Part shown: positions 22,628 through 54,700 of the stretch, in pieces
Layout: every line of letters starts with the position of its first letter
How positions within the stretch are numbered: the first letter of the stretch is position 1
Assembly: GCA_001600815.1 (NCBI GenBank)
Contig: BCKZ01000022.1
Location: 152,982-216,981, forward strand
Source of the DNA: Alloascoidea hylecoeti
Taxonomy: Eukaryota
Length of the DNA: 64,000 nt
Direction: 5' to 3'
Made by a program: the position numbers and the translations under genes
The notes under the pieces: model-generated
The model's input: the letters and a program-made list of their open reading frames with translations, nothing else
The model's database searches: none
Told to the model about the DNA's origin: nothing

Positions 22628-22879
22628 TGTTGATTATATGTAAGAACATGGTGGAACAAATTTATAGTTCATTATTTAGATTAACTAGACTAAATAGTTT
22701 TGGGGGATTCCATAATTTATATGGAGGAATTCCCACATTTTAGAAAGTATCGTAAAAATATAATATAATAAATATATTCATATTTAATTTCCAAGAGTTT
22801 AAGAACAACGTGTTTATACAATCTGAGGACATCAATTAACAATGAGCGAACAAGAATCAACATCTAATTCTATTCAACA
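22628..22879 (+). mobile_element. 5' LTR of a Ty1/copia-type retrotransposon (252 bp)
   Basis: Starts TGTTGA and ends TCAACA (terminal inverted repeat); followed immediately by TGGTAGCG; internal sequence recurs at 47866..48021. Confidence 0.75.
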
Positions 22880-30552: not shown

Positions 30553-33123
30553 TCAATTTCCATTTTTATCATTAAAACTTGAAAGGTTTGTAAATGGATC
30601 TCGTGTTGCATTTCCATATCTTTGACTATTATTCGGAATTATTCTATTAGATTGATTAACATTTAAATTGGGACCATCAATTACAATACTAGGTGTAGAT
30701 GGGTTAGCAGTTGACATTATCATTGTATTTTGATTAAATGACTCACCTAAAGATGGTGAAGTAGTTAATTCTTTATTATCATCACCATGTAATCGTGAAT
30801 TTGAAGCATTTCGATTATTATTATAATCAGATGATCCATCAGCACTATTACTATCAAAATCTTCTTTTAAATTATTTTTTGAACCAGGTAATGGTGGAAT
30901 AATCTCACGACTTCCAAGTTCATTATCAACATCATCATCATCATTAAAATTTTGAGTTTGATTTGTTTTAATTGATCTACTTCTTCTTGATAATTTTCTA
31001 ATTAATTTCATACCAAAACCTTCTTTTTCATCTTCAATATTATAAGAACTACCACCATTTGATGAAATATTTTTATTTCTAATATCATTTAATTCTTTAA
31101 TTTTTAACATTTCATTTTCCCAATTATCTTGATGTTCTTGAGCTGCTCTACCTAATTCAAATAATTCATTTTTTTTATTATCATTTGAATTTAAATCACC
31201 ATTATCATTAAAATGATTATTAATAAAATTATTATTTTGAAAACTTGTCCTATCATCATTTGGTTTTGCAAATTTTGAATCTGGATTTTTTGAAAAAACA
31301 GCCATTAAACAAAAAACCAATGTAACAATTAATAAAATGAAAGAAAAAGCAGCATTTAATATAAAAAAAATCCAACCCATTATACTTGAAACAGCCATTG
31401 GTGCTTTAAAAACATCTGAAAAAAACATAAAAAAAAATGCATTGAGAGTTAATACAACATTCATTGAAATATTAACAGCATTTGTCATTTTATTTAAATA
31501 TGGTTTATAATAACATAAAATTATTAAATAAATAAATTCAACAACAAAGAAAACAATACTTTGTGGACCACCATTTGATTGACCAAAAGCAACAACACAA
31601 CTTTTACAAAATAAATAAAATAACATTATTGAACCAAAATAATAATTTGATGCTTTAAATTGTGTATACATAAAACCATATTTGTTCAAAACTTTATTGT
31701 TTGAATATAAAATATAAGCAGGATTTTTATATTGTTTAATTGAATTTGAACCATATTGAAAAGTTTTAAAACAACAATAACCAATAACACCAACTGAATG
31801 AATTAAAAAGAAAACAGCTAAAACAATCATTGCTGGTGAATCTCTTTGAATAAATTGCCACATTGAAAGTAACGTTAATTGAGTAAAAGCAATTAATATA
31901 TACCCAGAAATTGCACCTTTTAATTGTTGTCTCCAACCAGTTCTAAAATCATAAAATGAATTATTTTCATGTTTTATTTGATTTGGATCATTTGGATCAT
32001 TATTTGATTTTTTATTTTTAATTTTATCAATTATAAATAAAAGAAATCTAAAAAATAAAAAAACAATTGCTAATACCAAACCAAAAAATATAAAAAATGT
32101 ATAACCAGTTGCACAAACAGATGTAACTTCAATATATGCTTTATATGCAATTCTTTTAATACCACGTAAAACTTTTAATGTTGTACTATCAGAAACATGA
32201 ATTTCTGATTCTCTTTTAAACATTTTTAAATATTTTTTTGCTGCAATTGTTTTACTTAAATATCTTGATATCTCGCTATTTGTTGTTAATTCAACAACAT
32301 CATTACTTCTTTGAACTAATATATTAACTGTATCACTTGTTAAATAACTCGTTGGTGTACCACCTGTTGCTGAAATATACCATTTAAAGATCTTTTGCAT
32401 GAATTTAACTTCGATTAATCCCATTGACCAAGCCAAATTTTGAGCCCATGCACTTGCAATTGGTGGTACTCTTTCAACTGCTAATAAACAAACAACAACA
32501 ACAGATTGAAAATATAAAAATAAGGAAACGGAATTTGCGGCAATATGTTGAGCAGAAGTTGAATTACCAAAACATGACATTACTGCAGAAGTTAATAACC
32601 CAATACCAGCAACAACAGCAGTTGCCCATTTTGCACCTTTATGAGCAACAGTTCTTCCATTATTGAATTCTGTTTGAACACAGGCTAATAATGAATTATT
32701 ACTCGTATCCCGGACTCTAATCTTAACCAAAGCATCAATATCGGGGACAGTATAAGCAATCCCAGGAATACTAGAAACCACATCTTTTGATAAAGTATAT
32801 TGAGATTCAACAGTTAAATCGCCAGGATATAAAGGACAAAATTGTTTCATACCTAAATCGCAAAAATTAACAGTTCTTTCAAGAATATGAAAACCATAAG
32901 CGTAAACGTCTACATCAGCATAGACATAATCACTAATTTCTGAAACACCGGTAATATCGTATTTAAAAACCCTACTACTTGGATCATATTCAACAGACAT
33001 ATAAGAAGCTGTAAATTGAGAATCTTTCATACACGGAACCAAAGATGAAGCTCTAAGAATTCTTTTTGCAAAAGAAGTCGTAAATAAGTAAAAACATAAG
33101 ATATAAATATTTAAAAACAACAT
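30553..33123 (-). CDS. FLC/Pkd2-family TRP-like membrane protein
   Basis: Signal peptide, ML-like domain (QFCPLYPG, IPGIAYTVPDIDA), LFLYFQS, VPPIASAWAQNLAWSMGLI; first ATG at 33123. Confidence 0.9.
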   Translation of the reverse strand: MLFLNIYILCFYLFTTSFAKRILRASSLVPCMKDSQFTASYMSVEYDPSSRVFKYDITGVSEISDYVYADVDVYAYGFHILERTVNFCDLGMKQFCPLYPGDLTVESQYTLSKDVVSSIPGIAYTVPDIDALVKIRVRDTSNNSLLACVQTEFNNGRTVAHKGAKWATAVVAGIGLLTSAVMSCFGNSTSAQHIAANSVSLFLYFQSVVVVCLLAVERVPPIASAWAQNLAWSMGLIEVKFMQKIFKWYISATGGTPTSYLTSDTVNILVQRSNDVVELTTNSEISRYLSKTIAAKKYLKMFKRESEIHVSDSTTLKVLRGIKRIAYKAYIEVTSVCATGYTFFIFFGLVLAIVFLFFRFLLFIIDKIKNKKSNNDPNDPNQIKHENNSFYDFRTGWRQQLKGAISGYILIAFTQLTLLSMWQFIQRDSPAMIVLAVFFLIHSVGVIGYCCFKTFQYGSNSIKQYKNPAYILYSNNKVLNKYGFMYTQFKASNYYFGSIMLFYLFCKSCVVAFGQSNGGPQSIVFFVVEFIYLIILCYYKPYLNKMTNAVNISMNVVLTLNAFFFMFFSDVFKAPMAVSSIMGWIFFILNAAFSFILLIVTLVFCLMAVFSKNPDSKFAKPNDDRTSFQNNNFINNHFNDNGDLNSNDNKKNELFELGRAAQEHQDNWENEMLKIKELNDIRNKNISSNGGSSYNIEDEKEGFGMKLIRKLSRRSRSIKTNQTQNFNDDDDVDNELGSREIIPPLPGSKNNLKEDFDSNSADGSSDYNNNRNASNSRLHGDDNKELTTSPSLGESFNQNTMIMSTANPSTPSIVIDGPNLNVNQSNRIIPNNSQRYGNATRDPFTNLSSFNDKNGN

Positions 33124-33849
33124 TTTGTCATCCACTGAACTGATAATTTAAAATTTTGTTAGAAACTTTAAAACTGAAAGTTTAAAATGGTAGAACTTAA
33201 AAAATTTAAATACAAAGTTATAAAGATCTGAATTTGAACGAGTGAAAATGAGTTGCAAAGAAAAAAGAAAAAGAAGAAGAAGAAAGGAGAAAAGGAAAAG
33301 AGGAAAAAGAAGCACAGGAGAGCTTTCAATTTAAAAATAAAACACGGAGCTTCTGGATGCACGGGTGTGTCTGCATTTAAATTAATTTATTTCTATTAAT
33401 TATCAAACACCATTATATTTTTAATAATTACCTATTTAGGAAAGGATCACTTTCTTTTTTCTCTTACAAATAGCTGGATAATAAGTACAAATCAGAAGCT
33501 TCACTTTTCAAAACAGTTACATATTTCAAACTAGCATTTTCAAAGGTGTCAATGAAATATAAAAAACAAAAAAAGAAGAATGTCAACGTTAAATCAAATG
33601 CTTAACAATGTATAAAGTATAATAGAAAATGTAATCTTTAAATTCCTTTGTGCTTATAAAACATATATACAGCACCTTTAGTTTTTTTCTTCCTTCTCGG
33701 ACTTTCAATATTAATACATGAGAGGTTTTAAACAAACAAACAAAAAAGATATCCCTAAACTGCAACAATCAATAATAGAAAAAATGCACATATACTTTAT
33801 ATTGTCATTTATTTAGACAATAGAAAATCGAATATAAAGGAAAATGCCT

Positions 33850-34500
33850 TTAGACGGCTGAGGCTGAAGCATGCTTTAATAAATCTATAAAGAAATTTGG
33901 GTTTTGTGGAGTTTGTGATCTACCCCTTTCCTTTTGTTGTATTTGATTTGGTAAATGTTGTCTAATTCCACCCAATGGCATTCCAATACCTGCGCCACCT
34001 GTTGGTTCATAATGTCCAAACCTTGCTGAAGAGTAAGAATTACTATATCCGGAACCCGGACCACCTAAATAAGAATCAAAAGCATCTTCATCAGCAGCAA
34101 CGGCAGCCCCATTTGGTGAACGTAGAGATACAACAGATTCAGAACGAACAGACCTTGTTACTGAGCGGGAACGAGATATAGAACGAGCACGAGAAGCAGA
34201 TCGATCCCGACCTAGAGAGTTTGGAAGTCCAGGAGCGATACTTGAACTTCTGGATGGTGCGCGTGAAGAAGCACGAGACTCAGCATAAACAGAACCAGCG
34301 TAAGACATATCATCATATTCAGTAGTTAAAGTCATAAATCGGAATCCACCGGAAGTAGCGGGTTCTTCCTTAACTTCTTCTTCAACATCATCACCGGGAG
34401 TTAAAGTTAAAAATCTAACCCCTTCTTGATTTGGATAGGAGTAACCACGAAGTCCATCATATGGAGAAGGATCATAAGAAAAACAGCTAGATGAAGACAT
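33850..34500 (-). CDS. Hypothetical Ser/Arg-rich protein
   Basis: 216-aa ATG-initiated ORF with yeast-like codon usage, AT-rich leader, and two G(V/F)RF(L/M)TLT motifs. Confidence 0.7.
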   Translation of the reverse strand: MSSSSCFSYDPSPYDGLRGYSYPNQEGVRFLTLTPGDDVEEEVKEEPATSGGFRFMTLTTEYDDMSYAGSVYAESRASSRAPSRSSSIAPGLPNSLGRDRSASRARSISRSRSVTRSVRSESVVSLRSPNGAAVAADEDAFDSYLGGPGSGYSNSYSSARFGHYEPTGGAGIGMPLGGIRQHLPNQIQQKERGRSQTPQNPNFFIDLLKHASASAV

Positions 34501-35963
34501 TTTTATGTGTAGTATTAAAGATGTGAATTGAAATTGAAGAGTTGGGAAAAAAGAAAAAAAAAGGGAGGAACTATCAAATATAAATAGTTTTTCTAAATAA
34601 CTTGTAACGTTAATCTAACGATCATCATGATTTTGTGGGGATACGAATGATTTTCAACCAATTAAAGACGGTTTCATATCCGGGGTAAGTCGTAATAAAT
34701 AATAATAAATAACAGAAATGAAATTATTTCTTTATTTGAATCATAATGCGTTAAATAAATATAAAATATTCTCTTAAAAAATGAAAATGCATAAAAATAA
34801 CCATTAATCGCGATCACAAATTTCTCAAAATTTTCTCAAATTTCGCAAATTTCGCAAATTCGCAATTAAAATTTTATTTTTAACCTATCTAGCGCGATTA
34901 ATTAATAAATGTCGGAATCCGTTGAAAATTTAACTCATCTTATTTGTGCAGTAGGAATCTGTTGGATTATCTTATTTGCGTGGTAGGATTAATTAAAATA
35001 TCCATACACATCAAGTATTATCAACATGTGTCTCATTCCATTAATGAGCATAATACTACTATCGTAACATGAAAGCTTAAAAGTAATGTGCAAAATCACC
35101 AAACCAAATTGAGTTCAGTGAATCTTCACAAGATCCCTTTACTGTATACTTAGATTCCTGTTACCGCAATCAATAGCACTCCTTAAAAATGTAGATCACT
35201 ACCTACTATGGCGCGTCTCACTGAATTCGTTAACACCTCCTAGGAAAATCAAAAAATCCTCGCGGAAAATGTGATCACAATACCTAAATCATTTCAATTA
35301 TATGTATAATAAGTTCTTTAAAAAGTAGATAAGTGGCAATGCATATCTTGAATATTGTCTTCTCATTTCAAATTAATTTTTGCATTTCTCTGTCAGATTA
35401 TTTACCCCTATTTCTTCTTAACTATGTAAAACAGAACTTACTTTATTTAAATGAATGCATACATATGTATGTTGCCATATTTCCCCTATAGCCTATTATG
35501 TATAGTTGCATGCATATTTGGGAACCAAAATTTCTCGCCAGAAAAATGTTTTTCATTTTTAGTGGCGCTCTATATGTGAGATCTTATCACATCGATAATC
35601 AAAAAATGGTTAAAAATGGTTAAATTTTGTTATCTAATAATTGAGTTCTTAATCTTCAAATGTAGAATTCCACTATCTCTAATTCAAAACAAAGTAATTT
35701 ACTGTAGTTAATAGTTAGTGCCAATATTCTAGCCATCTAAAGTCTCTTAAAGCTTTTTATTTTGCCCTATGATTCGCGATACACTTTTGATCCCCTTTGA
35801 ATGAGGTGAATGGGCAGTGTTTTCGTGTTTCTTTCATTTGAAGTTCGGCAAATTAAGCCTATAATATAAAAACCATAGCTCTACAAATTCTACACCCTAA
35901 ATTAAGTTTTTTTAGAAAGTTTTATTATCTCTTCTAAATATTTTTCATAATATAGTATAATAA

Positions 35964-42010: not shown

Positions 42011-42847
42011 TCGGATACAATAAAAATTTGGAATATTGAAACTTGTCAATCAGTAAAAGTGTTAAGTAAACCATGTATGAAACATATCTTGGCTTCTAAA
42101 GAAGATTCTAGTATTGTTAATTTTTTGGATATTAATGACAAATATTTGGTTTCTGGTTCATTTGATGGTACATGTATATTATGGAAATTACCAGACTTTA
42201 AACCAATAGATCGTTTGCTAATACCAGGAAATATAGCTTCTGGTGTACATATTTATGATGTCACTATATACGATTAGTTTATTGCATGTTGTACTAGGAA
42301 TGGTGATATTACGGAAATTGTGGTTTGGAAATCAAGTTTTGATAATTTTGAACATCAACTACAATTTAATTTACAACACCGTTTAAAAGGAAAAAGAAGC
42401 GTTAATACTGTTTGCATTTATGATGGAATTATGTATAGTGAAGAAAATAATGCTGTAACAACCTGGAATATTGAAACTGGTCAAATAATCCAAGAATTTT
42501 AATATGATAAAGTCTTTTACATGACAGTAAAGGATCATTACTTATTTGTTGGTGAATACGACAAAATAACAGTCCGGGACTTATGATCAAATGAATTAAT
42601 AAAATCGGATCAAAGATCAAACAAATTATGTATAAATAATAATAGAATTGTTTTGGTCGATAATGCTCGTATCATTAGGATTTGGAATTTAATTGATCAA
42701 ACATTAAAAGAATAAACAGCTTTACATAATAATTCACCACTTTATATTGATTCGAAAAGAATAATTGTTTTTCACCAAAGAAGTTGATCTTCTCATTTAT
42801 GATTTACTGAAAATTTATGGAAAAAAAAATATTTAAAATATTTATAA
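42011..42847 (+). pseudogene. WD40-repeat protein remnant (F-box/WD40-like C-terminal propeller)
   Basis: DTIKIWNIET, YLVSGSFDGTCILWK, VTTWNIETG, IRIWNL; in-frame stops at 42275 and 42500 and later frameshifts; ends ...KYLKYL*. Confidence 0.75.
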
Positions 42848-44282
42848 TCTAATACTATATTTAAAATATATCTTAAAATGTCTTATCACACAGTATATTA
42901 CCATTGTGCATATGCATATACTATATTTGGTAACTACTCATAGTTAGATTGTAAACTGCATCTATCCATACAATTGGAGTTTAGTTATAATATTTCTTGG
43001 CTATATTTACTGCCTATATAAATACATTTAAATTCCCACTGTCAATTCATCATTCATTATGTATTGGGTGCTGAGGATTTTATCTTTGAGTAATCTCTTT
43101 TAATTTGAAACTTAAGCAGCCATATGATGATCTTTTAAAATATTAATACCTCTAATTTTAACAAATAAAGGATTATGATAGTGGTTTGAAATGGAAAGAA
43201 GTTAAGAAAGGAGTTTTGTTTATATTTGGGAATACGGTGTATTAGGGTACTAAGTTATAATTGTTACTGTTAACGGTGGAGATAGTAAATACCATACTTT
43301 ATATGATGGTGATACTTGAAAAGAATATCAATTAACAAAGATATCTGTGTTTGATATCCATTATTCTTTGTGAATCGTGTATGATAGTCAAAAAGCTTTA
43401 TTATTTAGAAAATTACCTGTCGAAGAAATTTTAAAGGCCATTAGTAATACAATTAGATATCACTAGTTTAACTGATAGAAAATGTAATATTGAATGTTAA
43501 AAATGAAGATGGTGATGATTTCAAATTATGATGACAACCAAGTCATCCACCAAGAGATGATAATTGTTTATTTGGATATTAAATTCAATATTATCGAAAA
43601 ATTCAATCAAATAATCATTGGAGACCTTATTCTTCAACAAAAGAACAAATTATTAGGGATTTTTAATGTGTTGTTGAAGATTTGGAATTATTTGGGATTG
43701 GGTCAGCCCCCAGAAATACATATGGTCTGGTGAAATTTTTCATAACGTTTTAGAATTCGTCGACACAAATGCATATTGATCATGATGAATTATCATTTTC
43801 AAATATCACAATATCATTCTATTGCAAGCACAATTTACAAAACCAACAATAAAGATATATTATTATAAATACTTTCACTAAAATCTAATTAACCTCATTA
43901 TTGTAATCTGTTTAATATTTTCTATTTGTGAAGGAATAATGTGGACATTTTCTTAAAGCGTTTATTATAGTGTAATGTGAGAATTGAGAAGATCTACTAC
44001 CTTAAATACGTTTCAATTTTAAAAACAACTACTAAATCACCACCAGGAATTAAAATGGCACACACGGACTTTAGAAAATGAGAATGATCATAAGAACAAG
44101 TTCACACTCTCAGTTTTTGAGTATAAGAGACAACGCATGAAGATACTGATGAGATATTATCTACGTAAGGTGACAACATATAGGCCTATAGCTATATGAT
44201 ACATTCGGTATACTAGTATTATATATAGCTGTATATCTAGTAAAAGCAAATAAATCTTACATTGGCTATTATCTACCATTAT

Positions 44283-45622
44283 TTAACGACCATTAGTTCT
44301 TCTTCCCCTTTTCACAACTTCTGGAAGTTTCAATGGCGCTTTTAAAACGGCAATTCTATATCGATTAACTTGGTTCTTATTTAACCCTAACGCTTCTGCT
44401 TCTGATAAGTTTGCATATCTGATAGTGCATCCCAAAGCTTTACATAAATCAATTAATTTCGAAGGTTTTAATCCAAGTTCAGAAGCCATTGGTGTAATTT
44501 CCAATTTATAATTTTCTAATTTAAGTAACAATGCTAATAAATAACAAAGGAGTTTATCTTCAGAATTAGGATCAATAGTAAATCCTCTTTCTTTTATTTT
44601 ACCATAAGCACCTGGTTTAAAAGATGCAAAACGATCAATTATACCATCAATTAGAATATCTGGAGGATTTCCCAATTTAACGAGCATAGCATGTTTATTA
44701 GTAATTCTATAATTTGCTCGAATTCCTAATAATAATGAAGCATAATAAATCATTTTTAATTTTTGTGTTTGTGATTTATCTTTAATTCCTGATAATTTAT
44801 TCTTAATATATCTTGATGATGAAAATGGTAATAATTTTAATTTATCTTCTAATAAAGGTTCATTTAAAATTGAATCAACACGAATAAAATTAAATTCAGC
44901 TTTTGGAATAATACTATTAATTGAATAAATATTTTCAACTTCAGTTGTTTCCAAATCATAGAAGGGAATTGGTCTATCAGATGATATATTTTCTTTAACT
45001 TCTTCTGATGATGGTAAATTTTCAGTACTTGCTTTAATTGCATCAATAATTGAATCTTCTATTGATTCTAATTTACTTGAATCAATCATATTACGATCTT
45101 GATTAGATATAGCTTTCTTTGCCTTTTTAGTACCAAAGGTTTCACCTAAATCTCTTCTTCTATCAGCAAATCGAACATCAGTTGAACGAATAGATGGTCC
45201 TTTGAATTTTCTTTTTGATTTTAATGAAACTGTTATTGGAACCATAGGTGCGTTGTATAAGTCGATACTTTTTGTTTCTGGATCAAAAACAGCTAAGCAG
45301 TATTTATTTTCATCTTTAATTGCTGCTGTTCCATTATATTCTAATCGATCATTTTCTCCATGTAAATAATATTCAGTTTTATTTTTTGATTGATATAATT
45401 TAAATTTTGAATCTGTTGGAATGTTTGAAACACCACCTAATGAGCCTAAAATATGTTTAATGATGTCAATATTAAAATTTCAATGTAAAAAAAGTTAGGA
45501 ATTTAAAAAAAGAACTTACCAATAACAGCAATCGGTTCCTCATGATATGATTTTACTTTAATATATGTTACATTTCCATCTTTTTTCGTTTTATTGGAAT
45601 CACTTTCTTTACTTTTAGACAT
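44283..45622 (-). CDS. RPA49: RNA polymerase I subunit A49; exons 45622..45520 and 45445..44283; intron 45519..45446
   Basis: LHGENDRLEY, RRRDLGETFGTKKAKKAI, DKLLCYLLAL, LKAPLKLPE; GTAAGT...TAG intron restores the frame. Confidence 0.92.
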
Positions 45623-45768
45623 TTTAATTGTGTGTGATGGTTGGTTATGAAAATCAAGAATTTCGATGATGATGATGAAGAAGAAAAAAAAAAAAAGAAG
45701 GTTGTTGAAAATTTATTTTTCACAAACCTCCAACTGTAATGCATCACCATTAAAAAAAAAAAAAAAGA

Positions 45769-46359
45769 ATGACAACCACAACTAGTACTTATCCTATAAC
45801 ATTCACATACTATGATGTATTAGATTTAAAAACACCCGATTTTACAGGAAAAGCGATAAAAAATGAACCAAGTCCACAAATTATAAAACAGGCGTATCGA
45901 GATTCGCTTTTAAAACATCATCCAGATAAACTTAATATTATAAATGGTTTATCAAAAGAGACATCACAAATAAGCAAATTAAGAAGTATAGATATGATCC
46001 AACAAGCATATAAAGTTTTATCATCGATTAAATTGAAAGAAGAATACCATGAATATTTACAGAAAAAACAAAGGGTTGAATTTAATATACAATCAACAGA
46101 TGGAATTGAACTTTTTAGTCTTGATAATTTTAATTATGAAGAGATAGAAATACAAGAAAGCAATGAAGTAGATATTCGATGGACAAAAGATTGTCCTCGT
46201 TGTAAAACGCATGAAAGTTTTATATTAACTGAAGATGATTTAGCTGATTCAGGGACTATTTGTGAAACTGAAGGGAATAAATATGAACTTGTGATTCAAT
46301 GCTCGGCTTGTAGTTTATGGATAAAAGTTTTCTACTATGATACTGGTGATGAAGAATAA
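45769..46359 (+). CDS. JJJ3: Diphthamide biosynthesis J-protein Jjj3/Dph4
   Basis: TYYDVL, HHPDK J-domain, CSL zinc finger CPRC...CSACSLWIKV. Confidence 0.9.
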   Translation: MTTTTSTYPITFTYYDVLDLKTPDFTGKAIKNEPSPQIIKQAYRDSLLKHHPDKLNIINGLSKETSQISKLRSIDMIQQAYKVLSSIKLKEEYHEYLQKKQRVEFNIQSTDGIELFSLDNFNYEEIEIQESNEVDIRWTKDCPRCKTHESFILTEDDLADSGTICETEGNKYELVIQCSACSLWIKVFYYDTGDEE

Positions 46360-46663
46360 AATTCAGAATTTCATCAAAAGTCTACACGATGATCAAAGTA
46401 TCACAAATTTACAATTAGAGCACTTTAAGAAAATACAATATAATCACACAGGAACTGAAAACTGTCTGGATCCATATCCATATATCATTATTCTTTATGA
46501 TTATTTAATTGATAAATCTTAGAAATTATATACAAAAATGGTATATATATGAATTAATAAAAATTCATTCAACTCTGATTAAAAAAATACCCAAACTTCA
46601 AAGTTACAATTAAATTCTTATTATAACTCAATAATAATAAGCTTACAATTTATTAATTAATGA

Positions 46664-47813
46664 ATGAATAATTACTTTATAATGGCCTATTGGATAGCAC
46701 TGATGGTTAAAGATAATCAAGTTGATCGTTCAGTACTTTCTAACTATGTTGACTCACCAGCTACAGAAGTTAAGGAGATGACTACAAGTGATGAAGCTAA
46801 ATTTCTTCCAGTATTAAGTGCATGTTGTGGAAATCAAAGTAAGCTTAGTCGCTTAATTAAAGGTGTTCCATTGTATTTTGATTTACTGGGTCAAGGCGAC
46901 ATGGATGTTAAAGACTTTCCAGTGGTTGGTGTTAAGTATAGCATCGCAACTACAATTGATGGATTCTCTAATGAAGTCAATACCGCTTACGTATGGAGTG
47001 GTAAGTGTTGCGAAGATGCGTATAATTGTGCTATCACTATGATGGCTCAGACATATCTTAATCGAATTGTGACTAGGAGCAGTAATGTTGCAATCCCATC
47101 AGATGGTGATGTTGTTAAGTTAGTAGCAGGAGGTAGTTGTCAGGGTATGAACAACCATTCAATGTGGGCAGCTATAATTCATTACTGTATAGATACTGGT
47201 CAGGCTGACCTAGAGGAAGCGATTACAATAGCACCTAGCTTACGACAAAATAAGTACCTTGAGGTTGTATACTTACCGCAATCTGTATTGCGTGGCGATT
47301 TGGTTATGCTAATGTTGAGAAGGCTAACCAAAGGTACACGGAGATTCTGTCCTAGTGCTACAATGGGGAAATTTATTGGTAGGGTTCATCAGATGGCTAT
47401 TCATGCGTATGAGTAAAAATATTATTTTATCGTATGAGAATTCGAAAACGAAGCATTGAAGGCATAAAGCTATTGAATTATTTAAAATAGGAGGCATTTC
47501 ATATCTTGGATTAACACGAAATTCAACTCTTAGGACCCTTGAAGGTACGAGAAGAATGAATTGGGCTGATGCTCTAACTAAAGATAATCTTGATCATCTG
47601 AATAAGTTTATATTTGAGTCTTGTTGGATAATTAATGCCCCACGGCGTGCGCTACATGGTGGGGTGGGTATATATTCAAGCAATAAATTTAGGGGTCCTG
47701 ATCCTCTCACTGAAACTGATACTGTTGCAATTCTTAGGAATGAGCTAATTAAAATTGGTGAAAGAGATGTAACTAAGCTTATACCTAAAAAATTAATTTT
47801 TATTAATTGGTGA
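46664..47813 (+). pseudogene. Putative endogenised dsRNA-mycovirus gene (chrysovirus/totivirus capsid- or P4-like), with one frameshift and one stop
   Basis: Intronless, less AT-rich than flanking genes, atypical codons; 250-aa ORF continues after a shift at about 47410 (MSKNIILSYENSKTKH*RHKAIEL...MNWADAL...); motif MWAAIIHYCIDTGQADLEEAITIAPSLRQNKYLEVVYLP recognised only by recollection. Confidence 0.5.
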
Positions 47814-47822
47814 AATATAAAT

Positions 47823-48021
47823 TGTTATCATTATACATGAAGTTAAACATAATTATTATACCTTTGTGGATTCCATTATATATGACGATGAATTCCCACA
47901 TTTTATAGAAGTATCGTAAAGATATTATATATTTATAATATATTATTTTTCAAGAGTTTTATAGTAATTAGTTGTTTATAATCCTAAGGACATCATCTAT
48001 TTTATTATGAGTGAATCAACA
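47823..48021 (+). mobile_element. Degenerate solo/partial LTR of the same family as 22628..22879
   Basis: Collinear shared blocks GGATTCCAT, GAATTCCCACATTTT, AAGTATCGTAAA, CAAGAGTTT, AGGACATCA, ATGAG.GAA, GAATCAACA; no PBS follows; left boundary approximate. Confidence 0.7.
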
Positions 48022-48027
48022 GTACTT

Positions 48028-48911
48028 CTTGTCGGACACTGTCGGACACCAACCGGTCTACATAAATCCCGCATATTTTGAAGATGCGTATTGTAAATAA
48101 TTCCCGGTTACGTTCACACGCAGGAAAAAAAGAAAAAGTATATAAACTTATGTATAAGACTTATAATTCCCCATTTATTATAGGGAATTCATTCAATTTT
48201 TAATAAAATTACATAAAAGAAGACACAATCTAATCGGTTTTTATTTGTTTCATTATTTAGGTAAATCATATAATCTAATTTAACAAACAAGTCTTGGTTG
48301 ATTGTTCAGCGTGTAATATTATGACCAGATCTTCCACTATTATTACATCGAACTCTGTTGTCGCTGGTTTATAAGGGAATGCTAAATACCTGCTATTTCT
48401 CTGTTTATTACTGGAACATGCTGTTTTATTGCAGATCTGTTAATATCGATTAACTACTTCTTTTTGATATATATATATAACTATTTATGGTGTAATAAGT
48501 TAGACGTTGATCAGTACTAGTATTAAAGATACATGTATTAACTATTATATAAGTTATAGTTCAATGATATATCATCAATCCCATTAGCGGATTATCATAA
48601 TAAATATTATACTTAAGATATGACAGTTCATTGTTTCATTGTTAGTCATAGAATAGTCGTTTCATAGATTAATTAGAGCTTATTTGCTAATGTATTGCTA
48701 AAGAAAGACTTACATGTGGGTATTTTACATCAGTTTTCTAATACCAAAAAGGGATATAGGAACAGTGAATAAGAATGCTTTAAAAAAAGGAAGAAAAGAA
48801 TTAATGACGAATAAAAAAGAATATTTAAGTCTTGTGTAGAAGAAGGTACCTAGTGACCGGTAAAACTCCGACCCAATGGTGTCCGACAGTGAGTGTTTTC
48901 TGCCCGACAAG
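48028..48911. mobile_element. Candidate non-autonomous TIR element (MITE-like)
   Basis: CTTGTCGG / CACTGTCGGACACCA / ACCGGTC at 48028..48058 mirrored in reverse order at 48855..48911 (15-bp perfect core); AT-rich non-coding interior. Confidence 0.45.
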
Positions 48912-50846
48912 GTGGGTTTGCCTTTATTTAATTGAAAATAATCATCATTGCCTAAAGAAATTTCAATTGATAACATAAATACATACTAAGAAAGAATTAT
49001 ATCGTTTTAATATTGTTTTAATTTAACTTGATTTTTATTAATTCCATGATTATAACCTAAGACCTTATAATTGATTATATTATGATGAGTCAAAACAAAA
49101 AGCGATATCGATTGATCTAGTTTGATCCTATTACCCAGGATACTTAAGACGATTCTTGACTTTCTTAACCCTTATATTTCATTTACTCTAACTCTAGGAG
49201 TTTGTGCTACACAATTTCAATGGTATTTAGGCCTGAACTAAGGCAGGGTAGAGCTTTTTCAATTGGTTATTCAGTTCTCAATCTGACTTTTTCAACAGTA
49301 TCATATACTATACTATCGAATGAATTTGATCATTGGCAAAATTTCAAATCTTCATTTCACATGATCAGCATTTAAAAATCAACTCCATGACCTTTTTTTC
49401 CTTTTAAGTACCTTTGAATTGTCTTGGAGGAGAACAATCGAAATCTCTTCGAAACAAATTCTGTAGCCATTAGAGCACCCATTTGGCTTAAGGTTTCGAT
49501 GTATCCTCAAATATTAAGTTTCTGAGTAAAACAAAGTTCATAGAATCTATTCACAGTACTGAATATATCATATTCTTTGCTATATATTTCATATATTGTA
49601 AGAACTAGATATATATACAAAAAAATAGGTACATGATATTTAACTTATAATATGTATGTTAGATATAAAGGATTAGATTGTCTTTATTAAAGTTTGTTTT
49701 TTTGTCATGATACTATATAGTCAGCAATTTCTACCTGGTTTTATATAATAATATAATATACAGATACAAAAGAGGTATCCAGTTCCGAACATAATAATAC
49801 AACAAGATTTTGATCAATTTTAGTTTTATTATAATTATACCTCGTCATGAGGGCATAAACCAATGGAAGAGTGATCACACAATTGGAATAACGTTTATAT
49901 TATTAACTATTTTTTGTTGTAAGTATTATCAGTATATTAGTTCAAAATATTAAAGTTGAAATCCAAATTGTTATTTGTGATGGGAATATCTGAATTTGCT
50001 AAATAAAGACTAATTCGATTCGACTGTTCAAGTAGTGTTAATCTCATAGATATTGTGGAATGTTATTTCCCTGAATCTTTACAAGGGAATTGAAATTGCG
50101 ATTGCAATTAAATAAATGACTGTTTACTTTTTTTAGCTATTAAAAAACAATAAAAGTATTATAGAGAATAGTTAATTTATCGTGTTCCAACTATAATAAT
50201 TATGCCCATTTAGTTTTAATTGCAAATGCAGATAATATTCCATACAAACGCCCACATATAATTATTCATTTTCATTTTATGAATCCCTCACCTCGGTTAG
50301 TATTGGGTTCATGACCCTAGGTTATCATGAGTATATCAGAAACAGAAAGTAATAAAATCTACGCATAATTAATGAGCCAAGTGTTAATAATTCTTCAACT
50401 TCCATTACTCGCAAGATTCTAAAACACATAAAGAATTTACTTTTACGTTTGTTGCTTAGACTACTGAATCAGTTGTGAAGCCACGGAAACGGAAATAAGG
50501 GAGACGACTTAGACGAGGTCTGTCTTAGCCATAGGGATATAAGGTAATCGGATATGTAAATGACTGGATGGGACTAATTATAAGTAAAAAAAGTGACACT
50601 TGAGATTAACTACCGTTGGATTATGTAATAGCAATTACCCCAGGTAGGAGGACAAAGTCTCAGCCCTGGTTGGGATATCTAATATGATAGCCAGTGGCAA
50701 AACAGTTGAACCAATTGTATCATGTGATCCGGTCTCAAAATTTTAAGAATCTTCAAGTGAAACATTTTGGTAATAGAAGGTTTATAACCTCCAAACATCT
50801 AAAGATGATCTTCCATCCTGCCCTGCACCATTTTTGTGAACTAGCT

Positions 50847-50884
50847 ACAGTAAACACAGTAAACACAGTAAACACAGTAAAACA
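50847..50884 (+). repeat. Tandem 9-mer (ACAGTAAAC) x4
   Basis: Direct reading of the sequence. Confidence 0.9.
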
Positions 50885-51570
50885 GCGAGCGTGGCTATAG
50901 TGAATGACATTGCAGCTGAATATTGATGATTGTTATACCATGTTTTTACTGCCCACTTCAGACTACTTACGTAACAAGTTGTGTGCAAGGTCATTGCTGA
51001 AAATGTTGAGCTGAGCTGAGTTGAGTTGGATGAATTCTATGGAAAGGGCAAATTTAAAAATTAAAGGGTTTATAAGTTGTTCATAGAGGTACGTAATTAT
51101 AATTTTTGTATTCCATGTCTAATGAAAATATTATGATGGGCCGGTCCTTACCAACTGCAGTTATTAAGTTATTAAGTTTCTATTCAATCAATGAAAAATG
51201 ATTGATAAGTCGATATCATTTGCAAATGATGAAAATTTGATTGAGCCTTTTGATGTCTTGGCATTTATTTGCACACACCAAAGGTTATTTCAATTAGCAC
51301 AATTAGGGGTTCGGGATGCTTGACGTGGGACGCATGCACGCCTACGTAACGGGGGCCCTTTTCAGCTGAGCCCCCCCTCGCATGGCACGCACAGATAAGG
51401 TTTGCGTGAGGCCCAGGAGAACACCCCAACACCCGGCGCACGCACACGCACGCGGGCATGCAGGGATCCCATGTGACCCGGGCCCGCGTCCACAGGGCGC
51501 TGGCACGGGACCGGGGCGTGGGAACGAGGCTGAGCTGGACATCGCAGCCCACGGTGCGTTGGGTGTCAGT

Positions 51571-51613
51571 GGGACCGGGGCTGGGACCGGGGCTGGGACC
51601 GGGGCTGGACCGG
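51571..51613 (+). repeat. Tandem 12-mer GGGACCGGGGCT x3 plus a partial copy, in the GC-rich PMC1 promoter
   Basis: Direct reading of the sequence. Confidence 0.9.
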
Positions 51614-51747
51614 TGTTCAGTTTCAGTTTGCATTATTTATATTATACCTCGTTTCTCTTCTTTTCGCTTTCCCTTCATCGTTTCTGATTTATAATACTCG
51701 TGGTTATAAATTAAAGGTCGTTACCACTCAACCTAACCTGCTCCAAA

Positions 51748-54700
51748 ATGGAAGACTTCACGTTGTCCATCGAGACTCTTCAGGCTCTTCATGACCCCAA
51801 GTCCCTCCTCAACCTGCAAAATTTAGGTGGCATTCATTCTCTTGCCGAAGCCTTGCACTCTGATATAAAAAATGGCTTGGACAAATCCACTCCCGACGTT
51901 GCCAAAAGACAGCAGCTTTATGGAACTAATATAATCCCAACCCCAAAGCCAAAGTCTTTTTTATATCTGGCCTGGATGGCTCTGCAGGATCAAGTCCTAA
52001 TCATGCTTTCTATAGCTGCTGTTGTCTCTTTAGCCCTTGGTCTGTATGAGACTTTTGGCCAACCTCCAGAGCTGGATAGTTTGGGGCGTCCACAACCAAG
52101 AGTTAAATGGGTTGAAGGTGTTGCTATCATAGTTGCCATCTTAATTGTTATTATTGTTGGTGCTGCAAATGATTACCAAAAGGAACGCCAATTTGCTAAA
52201 TTAAATGCTCAAAAAGCTGATCGTGAAATTATTGTTATTAGAAGTGGTAAAGAAATTTCAATATCAATTTACGATCTAAATGTTGGTGATGTTATTATTC
52301 TAGAAACTGGTGATGTTATTCCTGCTGATGCTATATTAATCTCTGGAAATTGTGAATGTGATGAATCTTCAATTACTGGTGAATCTGATACAATTAAAAA
52401 ACTTAATGCTGATGATTCAATTAAATCATTAGATTCTCTTGTAGTTTCTAAAAAGCATCCTGATCCTTTTTTAATTTCTGGTTCAAAAGTAACAACTGGT
52501 TTATGTCATGCTTTGGTTACAACTATAGGTGTAAATTCAATGAATGGTAAAATTATGATTTCTTTACAAGTTGAATCTGAACCAACTCCATTACAAATTA
52601 GATTAAATTCAATTGCTGATGGTATTGCAAAATATGGTGGTTTAGCTGCTTTAATTTTATTTATTGTTTTATTTATAAAATTTATTGTTAATATAACTCC
52701 AAATCATAAATATTATAACCTAACTGGTAGTGAAAAGGGTTCAAAATTTTTAGAAATTTTAATCGTTGCTATAACTTTAATCGTTGTTGCTGTTCCTGAA
52801 GGTTTACCATTGGCTGTTACATTGGCATTGGCATTTGCAACTACAAGAATGTCAAAAGATGGAAATTTAGTAAGAGTTTTAAAAGCTTGTGAAACAATGG
52901 GTGGTGCTACTTGTGTTTGTAGTGATAAAACTGGTACATTAACTGAAAATAGAATGCATGTTGTTAAAGGAAAATTAGGTTTAAAGAATTTTAGTAAAAT
53001 TGATGATTCTGCTCCAAATCCTAATATTATTATTGATCAATTATCAATAAATTTAAAACAAATGTTATTATCTAATATTAGTATTAATTCAACTGCTTTT
53101 GAAAATGAAAAATTAATTAATCCACCAATTTTTACAAATGAAAAAGGAAAAGAAAAAGTTAAGAAAATTTCAATTTTTGGTAAATTATTTAATTTTACAA
53201 CTCCAAATTCAAATGATCATAAAAATTTAATTTTAAATCAAAATCAAAATCAAAATGAAAATGAATCTGGTGAATTATTTATTGGTTCAAAAACAGAAAC
53301 TGCTTTATTATTATTTGCAAAAGATTTTTTTGGTATGGAAACTGGTACATTAGATGAATATAGAAAATTACAACGTACTGAATTAGGAATTGAATCAATT
53401 ATTCAAATTATACCATTTGAATCTTCAAGAAAATGGGGTGGTATTGTTGTTAAATTAATAAATTCTGATAATTATAGATTTTATATTAAAGGAGCAAGTG
53501 AAATTGTTTTATCAAGGACTGGACAAATTATAACAGAAAATGATAAAATTAAAGAAATTGATTTAAATTTATTTAAAGAATTAACAAATGATATTAATGA
53601 TTTAGCTTCACAATCTTTAAGGACATTGGTTTTAAGTTATAAAGATTTTGAAAATTTAAAACAATGGCCTCCATTAGATATTACATCTGATGAAAATTCA
53701 AAAGAAGCTGATATTGATTTATTATTTGGTAAAGTTTTAAAACGTGAACAACAACAAACAAATAAAATTGAAAATGAAAATGAAAATGAAAATGAAAATG
53801 AAAGTGAAAAAGAAATTATTGAAGCTGAAAGTCCTGCAACAATTATTGTAACTCCATTCCCAGAACCAAAACAAGAAGAAGAAAAAGAAGAAATTCAATT
53901 ATCAAAAACTTTAATCTTCATTGCATTAGTCGGTATTCAAGATCCATTAAGACAAGGTGTTACAGAGTCTATACAACGATGTCAACATGCAGGTGTAACT
54001 GTTCGAATGGTAACTGGTGATAATTTATTAACTGCTAGAGCAATTGCTTCATCATGTGGTATATTTAAACCAGAAAATGGTGGATTTTGTATGGAAGGAC
54101 CAGAATTTAGAAAATTAACTTTAAAACAACAAAGAAATATTGTACCACATTTACAAGTTTTAGCAAGATCAAGTCCTGATGATAAAAGAATTTTAGTTCA
54201 AACATTAAAAGATTTAGGTGAAGTTGTTGCTGTTACAGGAGATGGTACAAATGATGCACCTGCATTAAAATTAGCTGATGTTGGTTTTTCAATGGGTATT
54301 GCTGGTACTGAAGTTGCTCGTGAAGCTTCTGATATTATTTTATTAACTGATGATTTTACATCAATTGTAAATGCTATTAAATGGGGTCGTTGTGTTTCAA
54401 CATCAATTAAAAAATTTTTACAATTTCAATTAACTGTTAATATTACTGCTGTTGTTTTAACTTTTGTTTCTGCTGTTGCTTCTTCTGAAGGTGAATCTGT
54501 TTTAACTGCTGTTCAATTATTATGGGTTAATTTAATTATGGATACTTTTGCTGCTTTAGCTTTAGCAACTGATAAACCAAGTGAAGATATTTTAGATAGA
54601 AAACCAACTAATAGAAATAGTTCATTAATTGCTGTTTCTACTTGGAAAATGATTATTGGTCAAGCAACAATGCAATTAATTGTTACATTTACAATACATT

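Follow-up and report, generated by a model that had tools for sequence, protein, structure and literature searches.

The locus behind the DnaJ-type gene raises the question of whether a yeast chromosome holds the remains of a double-stranded RNA (dsRNA) virus gene and, if so, from which virus it came, how it reached the nucleus and whether it still serves its host. The window, that is, the whole stretch of 64,000 nucleotides of Alloascoidea hylecoeti DNA that was analysed, had been described in an earlier note as carrying a chrysovirus- or totivirus-like gene at 46577..47813. Our analysis indicates that the stretch from 46685 to ~47785 almost certainly encodes chrysovirus capsid sequence (Table 1); positions without a contig name refer to the window throughout.

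Two frames on the forward strand make up the element, an ATG-initiated ORF of 250 codons (46664-47416) and a second frame (47328-47813) that is open apart from one TGA, its only stop up to 47813, which confirms the TGA reported previously at about 47457. A profile of 61 viral capsids matched one frame at 46685-47401 (tiles scoring up to 144 bits) and the next frame at 47520-47822 (profile positions 421-520; 30.7 bits compared to -1.8 for the best codon shuffle), and single capsids picked up the second frame starting at 47463-47475. Since the profile match ends at 47401 and the single-capsid matches start at ~47463, the frameshift lies between these two positions, in agreement with the break previously noted at about 47410. 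The homologous stretch amounts to ~370-380 codons, as expected from the intronless stretch of about 380 codons described before, and the peptides quoted at the time do occur in the translation. The composition is also unlike that of the host, with a GC content of 0.385-0.415 across 46800-47399 compared to 0.25-0.29 in the flanks and a GC3 of 0.30 in the ORF compared to 0.10-0.28 in 14 host ORFs. The standard genetic code was applied throughout, a check of the code being uninformative with just 2 CTG codons in the ORF, and an Rfam scan of 44000-52000 gave no match. The host gene upstream of the element is one that we take to be JJJ3/DPH4.

Table 1 Features of the capsid locus and its surroundings (positions in the window)
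Feature	Position	Strand	Basis or remark
Host RNA polymerase I A49 gene (RPA49), with 5' intron	44283..45521	-	basis for assigning the host to the budding yeasts
Host gene with DnaJ and CSL zinc-finger domains, upstream	45769..46359	+	domain matches
GATTAAAAAAA, proposed viral 5' terminus	46577..46587	+	rejected, chance level
ATG and 7 codons before detectable homology	46664..46684	+	upstream profile match absent; presumed
Predicted alphachrysovirus capsid fragment, first block	46685..47401	+	~residues 120-370, profile 133-378 of 930; inside ORF 46664-47416
Frameshift zone	47402..47463	+	single-capsid and profile matches
In-frame TGA, second block	47457..47459	+	polymorphic; not a stop in the X4 contig
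Predicted capsid fragment, second block	47464..47785	+	~residues 400-510, reaching the first helical domain's end and the linker
Decayed copy of a putative LTR family of ~250 bp, abutting the viral 3' end	47786..48030	+	repeat alignment; both ends eroded, limits approximate

The assignment to chrysovirus capsids was carried by sequence searches. The ORF matched Pfam family PF21685, the N-terminal domain of fungal virus capsids (E 6.5e-17; 62 bits compared to a cut-off of 27), and the capsid of Penicillium chrysogenum virus (PcV; 3J3I) over residues 189-389 (E 4e-14). An exhaustive search among 1.84 billion representatives returned 62 proteins at E <=0.001, namely the ORF itself and 61 others, which are 24-35% identical to it and mostly 800-1300 residues long. 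Nineteen of these 61 relative clusters were looked up and mostly lie on contigs of 2.7-4.2 kb; of the five with a name, two are chrysovirus coat proteins (Brassica campestris chrysovirus 1 and Raphanus sativus chrysovirus 1), one is a hypothetical protein and two are plant proteins from chromosome-scale contigs. The named homologues are viral coat proteins or plant genomic fragments and include no cellular family, as a transfer from virus to host demands. Best matches to cellular or transposon proteins, which the earlier note had named as evidence against its proposal, were found neither in the sequence nor in the fold searches. Capsid fragments of chrysoviruses are also annotated in two plant genomes, Cochlearia groenlandica and Syzygium grande, and another lies on one 10.9-kb contig (P0042, P0053 and P0060); these are probably further integrated copies.

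A structure model of the fragment (pLDDT 88.7) was built on the chrysovirus capsid alignment. In the viral fold library, the top nine Foldseek matches were chrysovirus capsids (TM-score 0.70-0.89), and 3J3I was the sole match at E <=0.001 in the PDB; as the fold match depends on the viral alignment used for the model, it confirms the sequence result and is not independent of it. PcV aside, we take these nine to be alphachrysoviruses, one of them by its name. PcV itself is placed there by PMC7414429. The first totivirus-named match appeared at rank 17 and the first chrysovirus protease at rank 24, and a totivirus capsid or a chrysovirus P4 was rejected as the source, with E values of 2e-4 or weaker compared to 1e-14 for the chrysovirus capsids in the fold search. 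The previous description, which had left room for a totivirus and for P4-type segments, is thus upheld for chrysovirus and capsid and falls away for totivirus and P4/protease. Judged from the capsid alone, the source segment appears to be dsRNA2, the capsid segment, of an alphachrysovirus-like virus, chrysovirus genera being assigned by RdRP phylogeny (PMC7414429). In the capsid tree, which was calculated without a betachrysovirus outgroup, the element sits on a long branch, in no starred group and with no strongly supported sister.

The profile positions present are 133-520 of 930, and a full-length capsid with two repeated helical domains was not found. On this alignment, the fragment appears to be internal to the capsid gene (~residues 120-510), the rest of the gene being missing; in PcV, the first helical domain and the linker span residues 1-498 and 499-515, respectively (PMC7414429). 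The ATG at 46664 is probably a chance start, because the first ~120 viral residues are absent. The proposal of a gene from 46577 to 47813 therefore stands as an internal fragment and not as a whole gene, and the last codons before 47813 are probably LTR and not virus (see below). Its supposed viral 5' terminus, GATTAAAAAA at 46577, had to be given up: three matches occur in the window compared to 4.27 expected, a number reached by 78 of 100 shuffles. The motif also lies 88 nt from codon 1 of the ORF, compared to 489-666 nt from the 5' end to the matching codon in nine of nine intact segments, which puts it 400-580 nt too near the coding match for a long 5' non-coding region of the chrysovirus type.

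The insert is chromosomal. It is present in four DNA runs, three of which may be the source of the assembly, and the fourth (X4) comes from another sample and another study. Contigs of X4 cross both junctions (45783-47276 and 47266-47995), so that viral sequence contiguous with host genes, as defines a non-retroviral integrated RNA virus sequence (NIRV), is seen in the assembly and in the second strain alike; together with the PF21685 and 3J3I matches, this bears out the endogenous chrysovirus gene proposed before. Inside the element, X4 and the window differ three times, by a replacement, by an in-frame indel of 15 nt and at the TGA site, and none of these differences is silent. At the replacement and the 15-nt indel, X4 matches the second copy of the element (see below), and the window state is therefore derived; no indel is listed for the second strain in the frameshift zone, and the frameshift is therefore common to both strains. 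An assembly artefact or a contamination with viral cDNA might be suspected since two of the three DNA runs compared may be the assembly source. We nevertheless regard the probability of this as negligible, because X4, with its different sample and study, crosses both junctions with variants of its own, a second and diverged copy exists, and the stops and frameshifts exclude a live virus.

The host was placed with the RPA49 gene, which is at most 53% identical to any homologue. The single-gene tree put it within Saccharomycotina (support 89/89), outside a starred clade of Saccharomycetaceae, Phaffomycetaceae, Pichia and one CUG-Ser yeast. An RNA run of another sample covered neither the element nor the host genes and is silent on expression.

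The genome has exactly two loci that match the ORF, the Pfam family or a full-length capsid. The second copy lies on contig C37 (~33,470-34,400, minus strand) and is 73% identical to the window copy over 651 nt. The paralogue that had been suggested as a check is therefore present, although not intact: the C37 copy is more broken than the window copy, its counterpart of the first block carrying one stop and five indels that break the frame. On one side it is bordered by a small host gene and on the other by a decayed duplicate of the two flanks of this gene (81% and 84% identical; 0 of 300 shuffles as high). We assume that the small gene is elongin C. The duplicate, at C37 34,794-35,081 (L004 6795-7082), comprises the 5' and 3' flanks of the small gene and lacks most of its coding part. 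Likeness between the two copies was not above shuffles in the upstream regions (294 of 300 as high) and was not significant in the downstream regions (31 of 300). On both sides of the C37 copy (~34,400-34,700 and 32,800-33,470), the GC content is mostly virus-like at 0.33-0.35, and these stretches may be further capsid gene or 5' non-coding region; no significant profile match to extra N- or C-terminal capsid sequence was obtained there, and ~500-700 further 3' bases at C37 have no second copy in the assembly. Another stretch of the window (42325-42762), outside the listed long ORFs, shares 70% DNA identity with C37 ~45,750-46,180 and is possibly another repeat or a paralogous fragment.

Comparison of the two copies in the window frame on the DNA alignment yielded a dN of 0.273 and a dS of 0.300 over 197 codons. 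The resulting dN/dS, a check that the earlier note had asked for, is 0.91 (bootstrap 0.60-1.41), with 0.77 (0.50-1.21) in a core of 171 codons and 0.89 in the second block, and purifying selection on the protein, as expected of a co-opted NIRV, was not found. Two viruses diverging under selection differ mainly at third codon positions. The differences between the copies are spread evenly over codon positions 1, 2 and 3 (51/43/45), suggesting that the templates were nearly identical and that the copies diverged while in the host. Losses of the viral majority residue numbered 7 for the window branch and 9 for the C37 branch, and neither these losses nor the site counts (19 vs 24) showed the window copy to be the better conserved of the two. 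The window copy keeps 28 of the 39 capsid columns that count as conserved, these columns being defined from the same 60 relatives used for comparison; the fraction kept by the 60 relatives is 0.64-1.0 and nearly always at least 0.79. In view of the near-neutral divergence and the differences between strains, the window copy is most likely a decaying fossil, and we consider it very probable that the element has no present function.

One alternative explanation is that the 250-codon ORF is or was expressed as a co-opted decoy, a truncated capsid that poisons the assembly of a related chrysovirus. The first block runs over 236 codons without a stop, which is somewhat unlikely under neutral drift (chance 0.01-0.05 at 0.14 changes per site and 0.07-0.16 at 0.08), and the five frame-breaking indels that separate the copies in this block are all on C37. 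At conserved columns, replacements occur slightly less often (Spearman -0.16, p 0.03; Fisher p 0.30), a weak gradient, and the structure model is confident, though made from the viral alignment. There is also a precedent in cp1 of Debaryomyces hansenii, which blocks a related totivirus according to the available text of PMC6166632. The shortage of stop codons is partly ascertainment, because the long frame made the locus visible, and there may have been a short early period of constraint. Set against the decoy are the dN/dS near 1, the loss of conserved residues about as often as in the broken copy, the strain differences that alter the protein and the extent of the ORF, which is devoid of the first ~120 residues and spans about half of one helical domain; interfering totivirus capsid fragments required at least 475 N-terminal residues in the experiments described in part of PMC6166632. 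We therefore hold a decoy capsid to be improbable. A defence at the RNA level, with the locus kept as a source of small RNA against the cognate virus and with the LTR or nearby repeats driving its transcription, appears still less probable: the genome encodes a single Argonaute-type Piwi domain, within an open frame of 983 codons, and the LTR adjoins the element, yet no inverted repeat of viral sequence exists at either site, and at 73% identity the copies would be too far apart to silence one common virus. The Piwi domain was located at C6:146,302-147,270, and from its presence Alloascoidea hylecoeti probably keeps RNA interference. A combined version, in which an unseen budding-yeast chrysovirus lineage was captured as a virus-LTR chimera and the ORF was kept open as a decoy capsid or RNA template, is likewise improbable; if true, this ORF would be a chrysovirus-derived immunity gene in a fungus.

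Coming back to the decaying fossil, its 3' end is informative with respect to its origin. Compared with intact copies, the LTR there is recognisable from ~47790-47808 to ~48030, in the same orientation as the capsid gene. The likeness of the viral DNA to the C37 copy extends to at least 47755 and fades near 47780; the LTR starts within ~40 nt of this end, and neither the C37 DNA comparison nor the capsid profile detected viral sequence beyond the LTR. At least 16 other copies of the repeat occur in the 24.8 Mb assembly. Among nine loci examined, three carry full ~250-bp copies (TGTT..CAACA) and one has a 5-bp target duplication; two full copies are followed by a primer-binding-like TGGTAGCG.. 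site, one of them being also preceded by a purine tract. With its TG..CA ends, target duplication and primer-binding-like sites, the repeat reads as an LTR family. We presume that the primer-binding-like site is a tRNA primer site and, from a motif, that the family is copia, a label for which Pfam, tblastn and phmmer provided no significant link. Copia reverse transcriptase is found in the genome, with 42 matches above the Pfam cut-off among the 50 matches listed. The LTR next to the element is 75-89% identical to other copies of the family, an age broadly compatible with that of the element. Two other readings of this region were dropped, namely the downstream repeat as the end of a MITE (after repeat comparisons) and the TGTT at 47823 as the LTR start (after alignment to intact copies). 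A well-preserved LTR of the same family is located at 22628-22879 of the window; behind it come a primer-binding-like site and decayed internal sequence over a few hundred bases. A near-perfect fold-back at C11:518,837-520,184 (L020 333-1680) has ~590-bp arms that are 99-100% complementary and each consist of an LTR and the end of a pol-like frame.

A scenario that joins these observations, and that we judge likely as a whole, comprises an ancestral infection, reverse-transcribed capsid RNA, two insertions and decay. An ancestor of the yeast would have carried an alphachrysovirus-like dsRNA virus, and RNA of its capsid segment would have been turned into DNA, the most likely enzyme being the reverse transcriptase of an LTR retrotransposon of the host. 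This retrotransposon would have linked the viral RNA to the beginning of its LTR, and the resulting chimeric DNA would have been inserted as a patch in the spacer that follows the DnaJ gene. At roughly the same time, a near-identical template would have come to lie on C37, with a copy of a duplicated host segment on either side, after which both copies would have decayed without clear selection on the protein, with the window copy still gathering damage.

For the capture step itself, we lean, with reserve, towards mediation by the retrotransposon. Such inserts are usually ascribed to reverse transcription by retrotransposons (PMC6166632, in part), and Ty1 reverse-transcribes other RNAs into retrosequences (PMC7175516, in part); the available text of PMC8557412 proposes a partitivirus polymerase as the reverse transcriber instead. 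Cargo and LTR meet within ~40 nt and in the same orientation, at one eroded junction with no counterpart at C37, where no LTR of this family adjoins the copy. A virus-LTR chimera is the simplest reading, and a later insertion combined with a deletion would give the same picture. Alternatively, the LTR could be unrelated to the capture, viral cDNA from any reverse transcriptase having entered a chromosome break, with the LTR and further debris arriving later in a spacer tolerant of insertions, an explanation that departs from the preferred one in the capture step alone. The 4.9-kb spacer does hold other repeats and a 72-bp piece that matches high-depth contigs, and the C37 copy, with no such LTR and between duplicated host flanks that are 81-84% identical, resembles break repair. 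Against this, the junction falls at about the first LTR base and in sense orientation, no viral sequence was detected past the LTR, and the other copies of the repeat found in 24.8 Mb are few (at least 16), and we regard an unrelated LTR as quite unlikely.

Several further elements were recorded in and near the spacer. In three DNA runs, the 72-bp piece (48756-48827) matches 4.7-6.5-kb contigs whose depth is ~10-20x the local one; it occurs once in the assembly and is probably an inserted mitochondrial or plasmid fragment. Together with its loose ends, it resembles an ORF that may be of the LAGLIDADG type. An element at 48028-48925, probably a non-autonomous DNA transposon, carries 22-bp terminal inverted repeats at 48037-48058 and 48870-48891; a copy with 78-88% identity lies at C16:458,226-458,727, and the 72-bp piece falls outside the portion that this copy matches. 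Another dispersed repeat family (49635-49790) has copies on at least seven other contigs, and a GC-rich island (51300-51650; GC 0.57-0.59) with 12-bp tandem repeats, surrounded by AT-rich DNA, lies just upstream of a P-type ATPase gene.

Whether the yeast itself was the host of the virus can be approached through composition. The GC content of the element at codon positions 1, 2 and 3 is 0.49/0.41/0.29, of which positions 1 and 2 are typical. The GC3 is 0.45-0.62 in eight of nine viral segments and 0.30, as low as in the element, in one. Drift over 0.14-0.28 changes per site would shift a GC3 of 0.45-0.55 only to 0.37-0.49, which indicates that the source virus was already A/T-rich at silent sites, fitting an A/T-rich host. 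Chrysoviruses have no known extracellular phase (PMC7414429), and this and the two insertions make an infection of this lineage the likely source. We therefore consider it probable that the yeast lineage was the natural host; RNA from a neighbouring organism may have been an alternative source.

A close free virus was not found, and no relative is more than 35% identical to the element. Nine IMG/VR segments show 27-32% identity, none of 47 candidate stretches in a metagenome scan was confirmed, and a search for proteins of near length returned the ORF itself only among 212 candidates. A word-based search of longer proteins yielded no close relative in 1098 candidates, with an insensitive method that missed known capsids too. 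A chrysovirus has 3-7 encapsidated dsRNA segments; searches of the genome for RdRP (PF02123) and P3/S7 (PF07236) gave no match, their controls being blank too.

In comparison with alphachrysovirus capsids (PcV 3J3I, Brassica campestris chrysovirus 1 and Raphanus sativus chrysovirus 1), the element shares sequence and the N-terminal helical fold but is at most 35% identical, broken, limited to ~residues 120-510 of 900-1300 and located in nuclear DNA. It belongs to the non-retroviral integrated RNA virus sequences (NIRV/EVE) known from yeasts. Totivirus NIRVs have been described in Debaryomyces hansenii (cp1/cp2), Scheffersomyces stipitis (Cp1-4) and Candida parapsilosis, with long frames under purifying selection that are partly expressed (PMC2805616, PMC6166632 and PMC3628385, each in part), and a co-opted totivirus capsid is described for Scheffersomyces (PMC3628385, in part). 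Both kinds are dsRNA mycovirus capsid genes in a yeast chromosome with more than one copy, whereas the present element is chrysoviral and a fragment, has a dN/dS near 1 and copies on different contigs, and is found in a genome with no polymerase match in the RdRP search, whose controls were blank. Chrysovirus-like sequences are also known from the plant genomes of Medicago truncatula, potato and clover, where they derive from the dsRNA3 protein (PMC5086604, in part); these represent the same virus family in a eukaryotic nucleus, but the host here is a fungus and the gene a capsid. The annotated proteins of Cochlearia groenlandica and Syzygium grande, on chromosome-scale contigs, match the same capsid domain as the element. 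Similarly, the unirnavirus-like element of Lipomyces starkeyi is a mycovirus fragment of one gene, found close to a mobile-element gene in a yeast that branches early, although from another virus family and reported as putatively transcribed (PMC7290986, in part). The Ty1 retrosequences of Saccharomyces cerevisiae are likewise foreign RNA that an LTR element reverse-transcribed into a chromosome; their cargo is cellular and the process was shown experimentally, whereas here the cargo is viral and the link is drawn from one eroded junction (PMC7175516, in part).

According to the ICTV profile, chrysoviruses have fungi, plants and possibly insects as hosts (PMC7414429). No chrysovirus, free or integrated, was found for budding yeasts in the literature covered, key older studies and supplements lying outside that coverage; none is mentioned in the available parts of PMC10674808, PMC8778689, PMC10224137, PMC6655640, PMC3407116 and PMC3483285, of which the host table of PMC10224137 gives genome types only and the survey of PMC6655640 left out Saccharomycotina. 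Against this background, the element indicates a wider host range and a divergent capsid lineage, and it suggests that the chrysovirus family once infected budding yeasts. Integrated copies of this kind are the only record of past RNA virus infections, and the divergent lineage (<=35% identity) can now be searched for in dsRNA screens of yeasts. The LTR at the junction is a candidate footprint of how the sequence of a cytoplasmic dsRNA virus reaches the nucleus, an entry that the available text of PMC8557412 calls unexplained. The element is thus a fossil of a known kind, and its main value is as evidence for chrysoviruses in budding yeasts.
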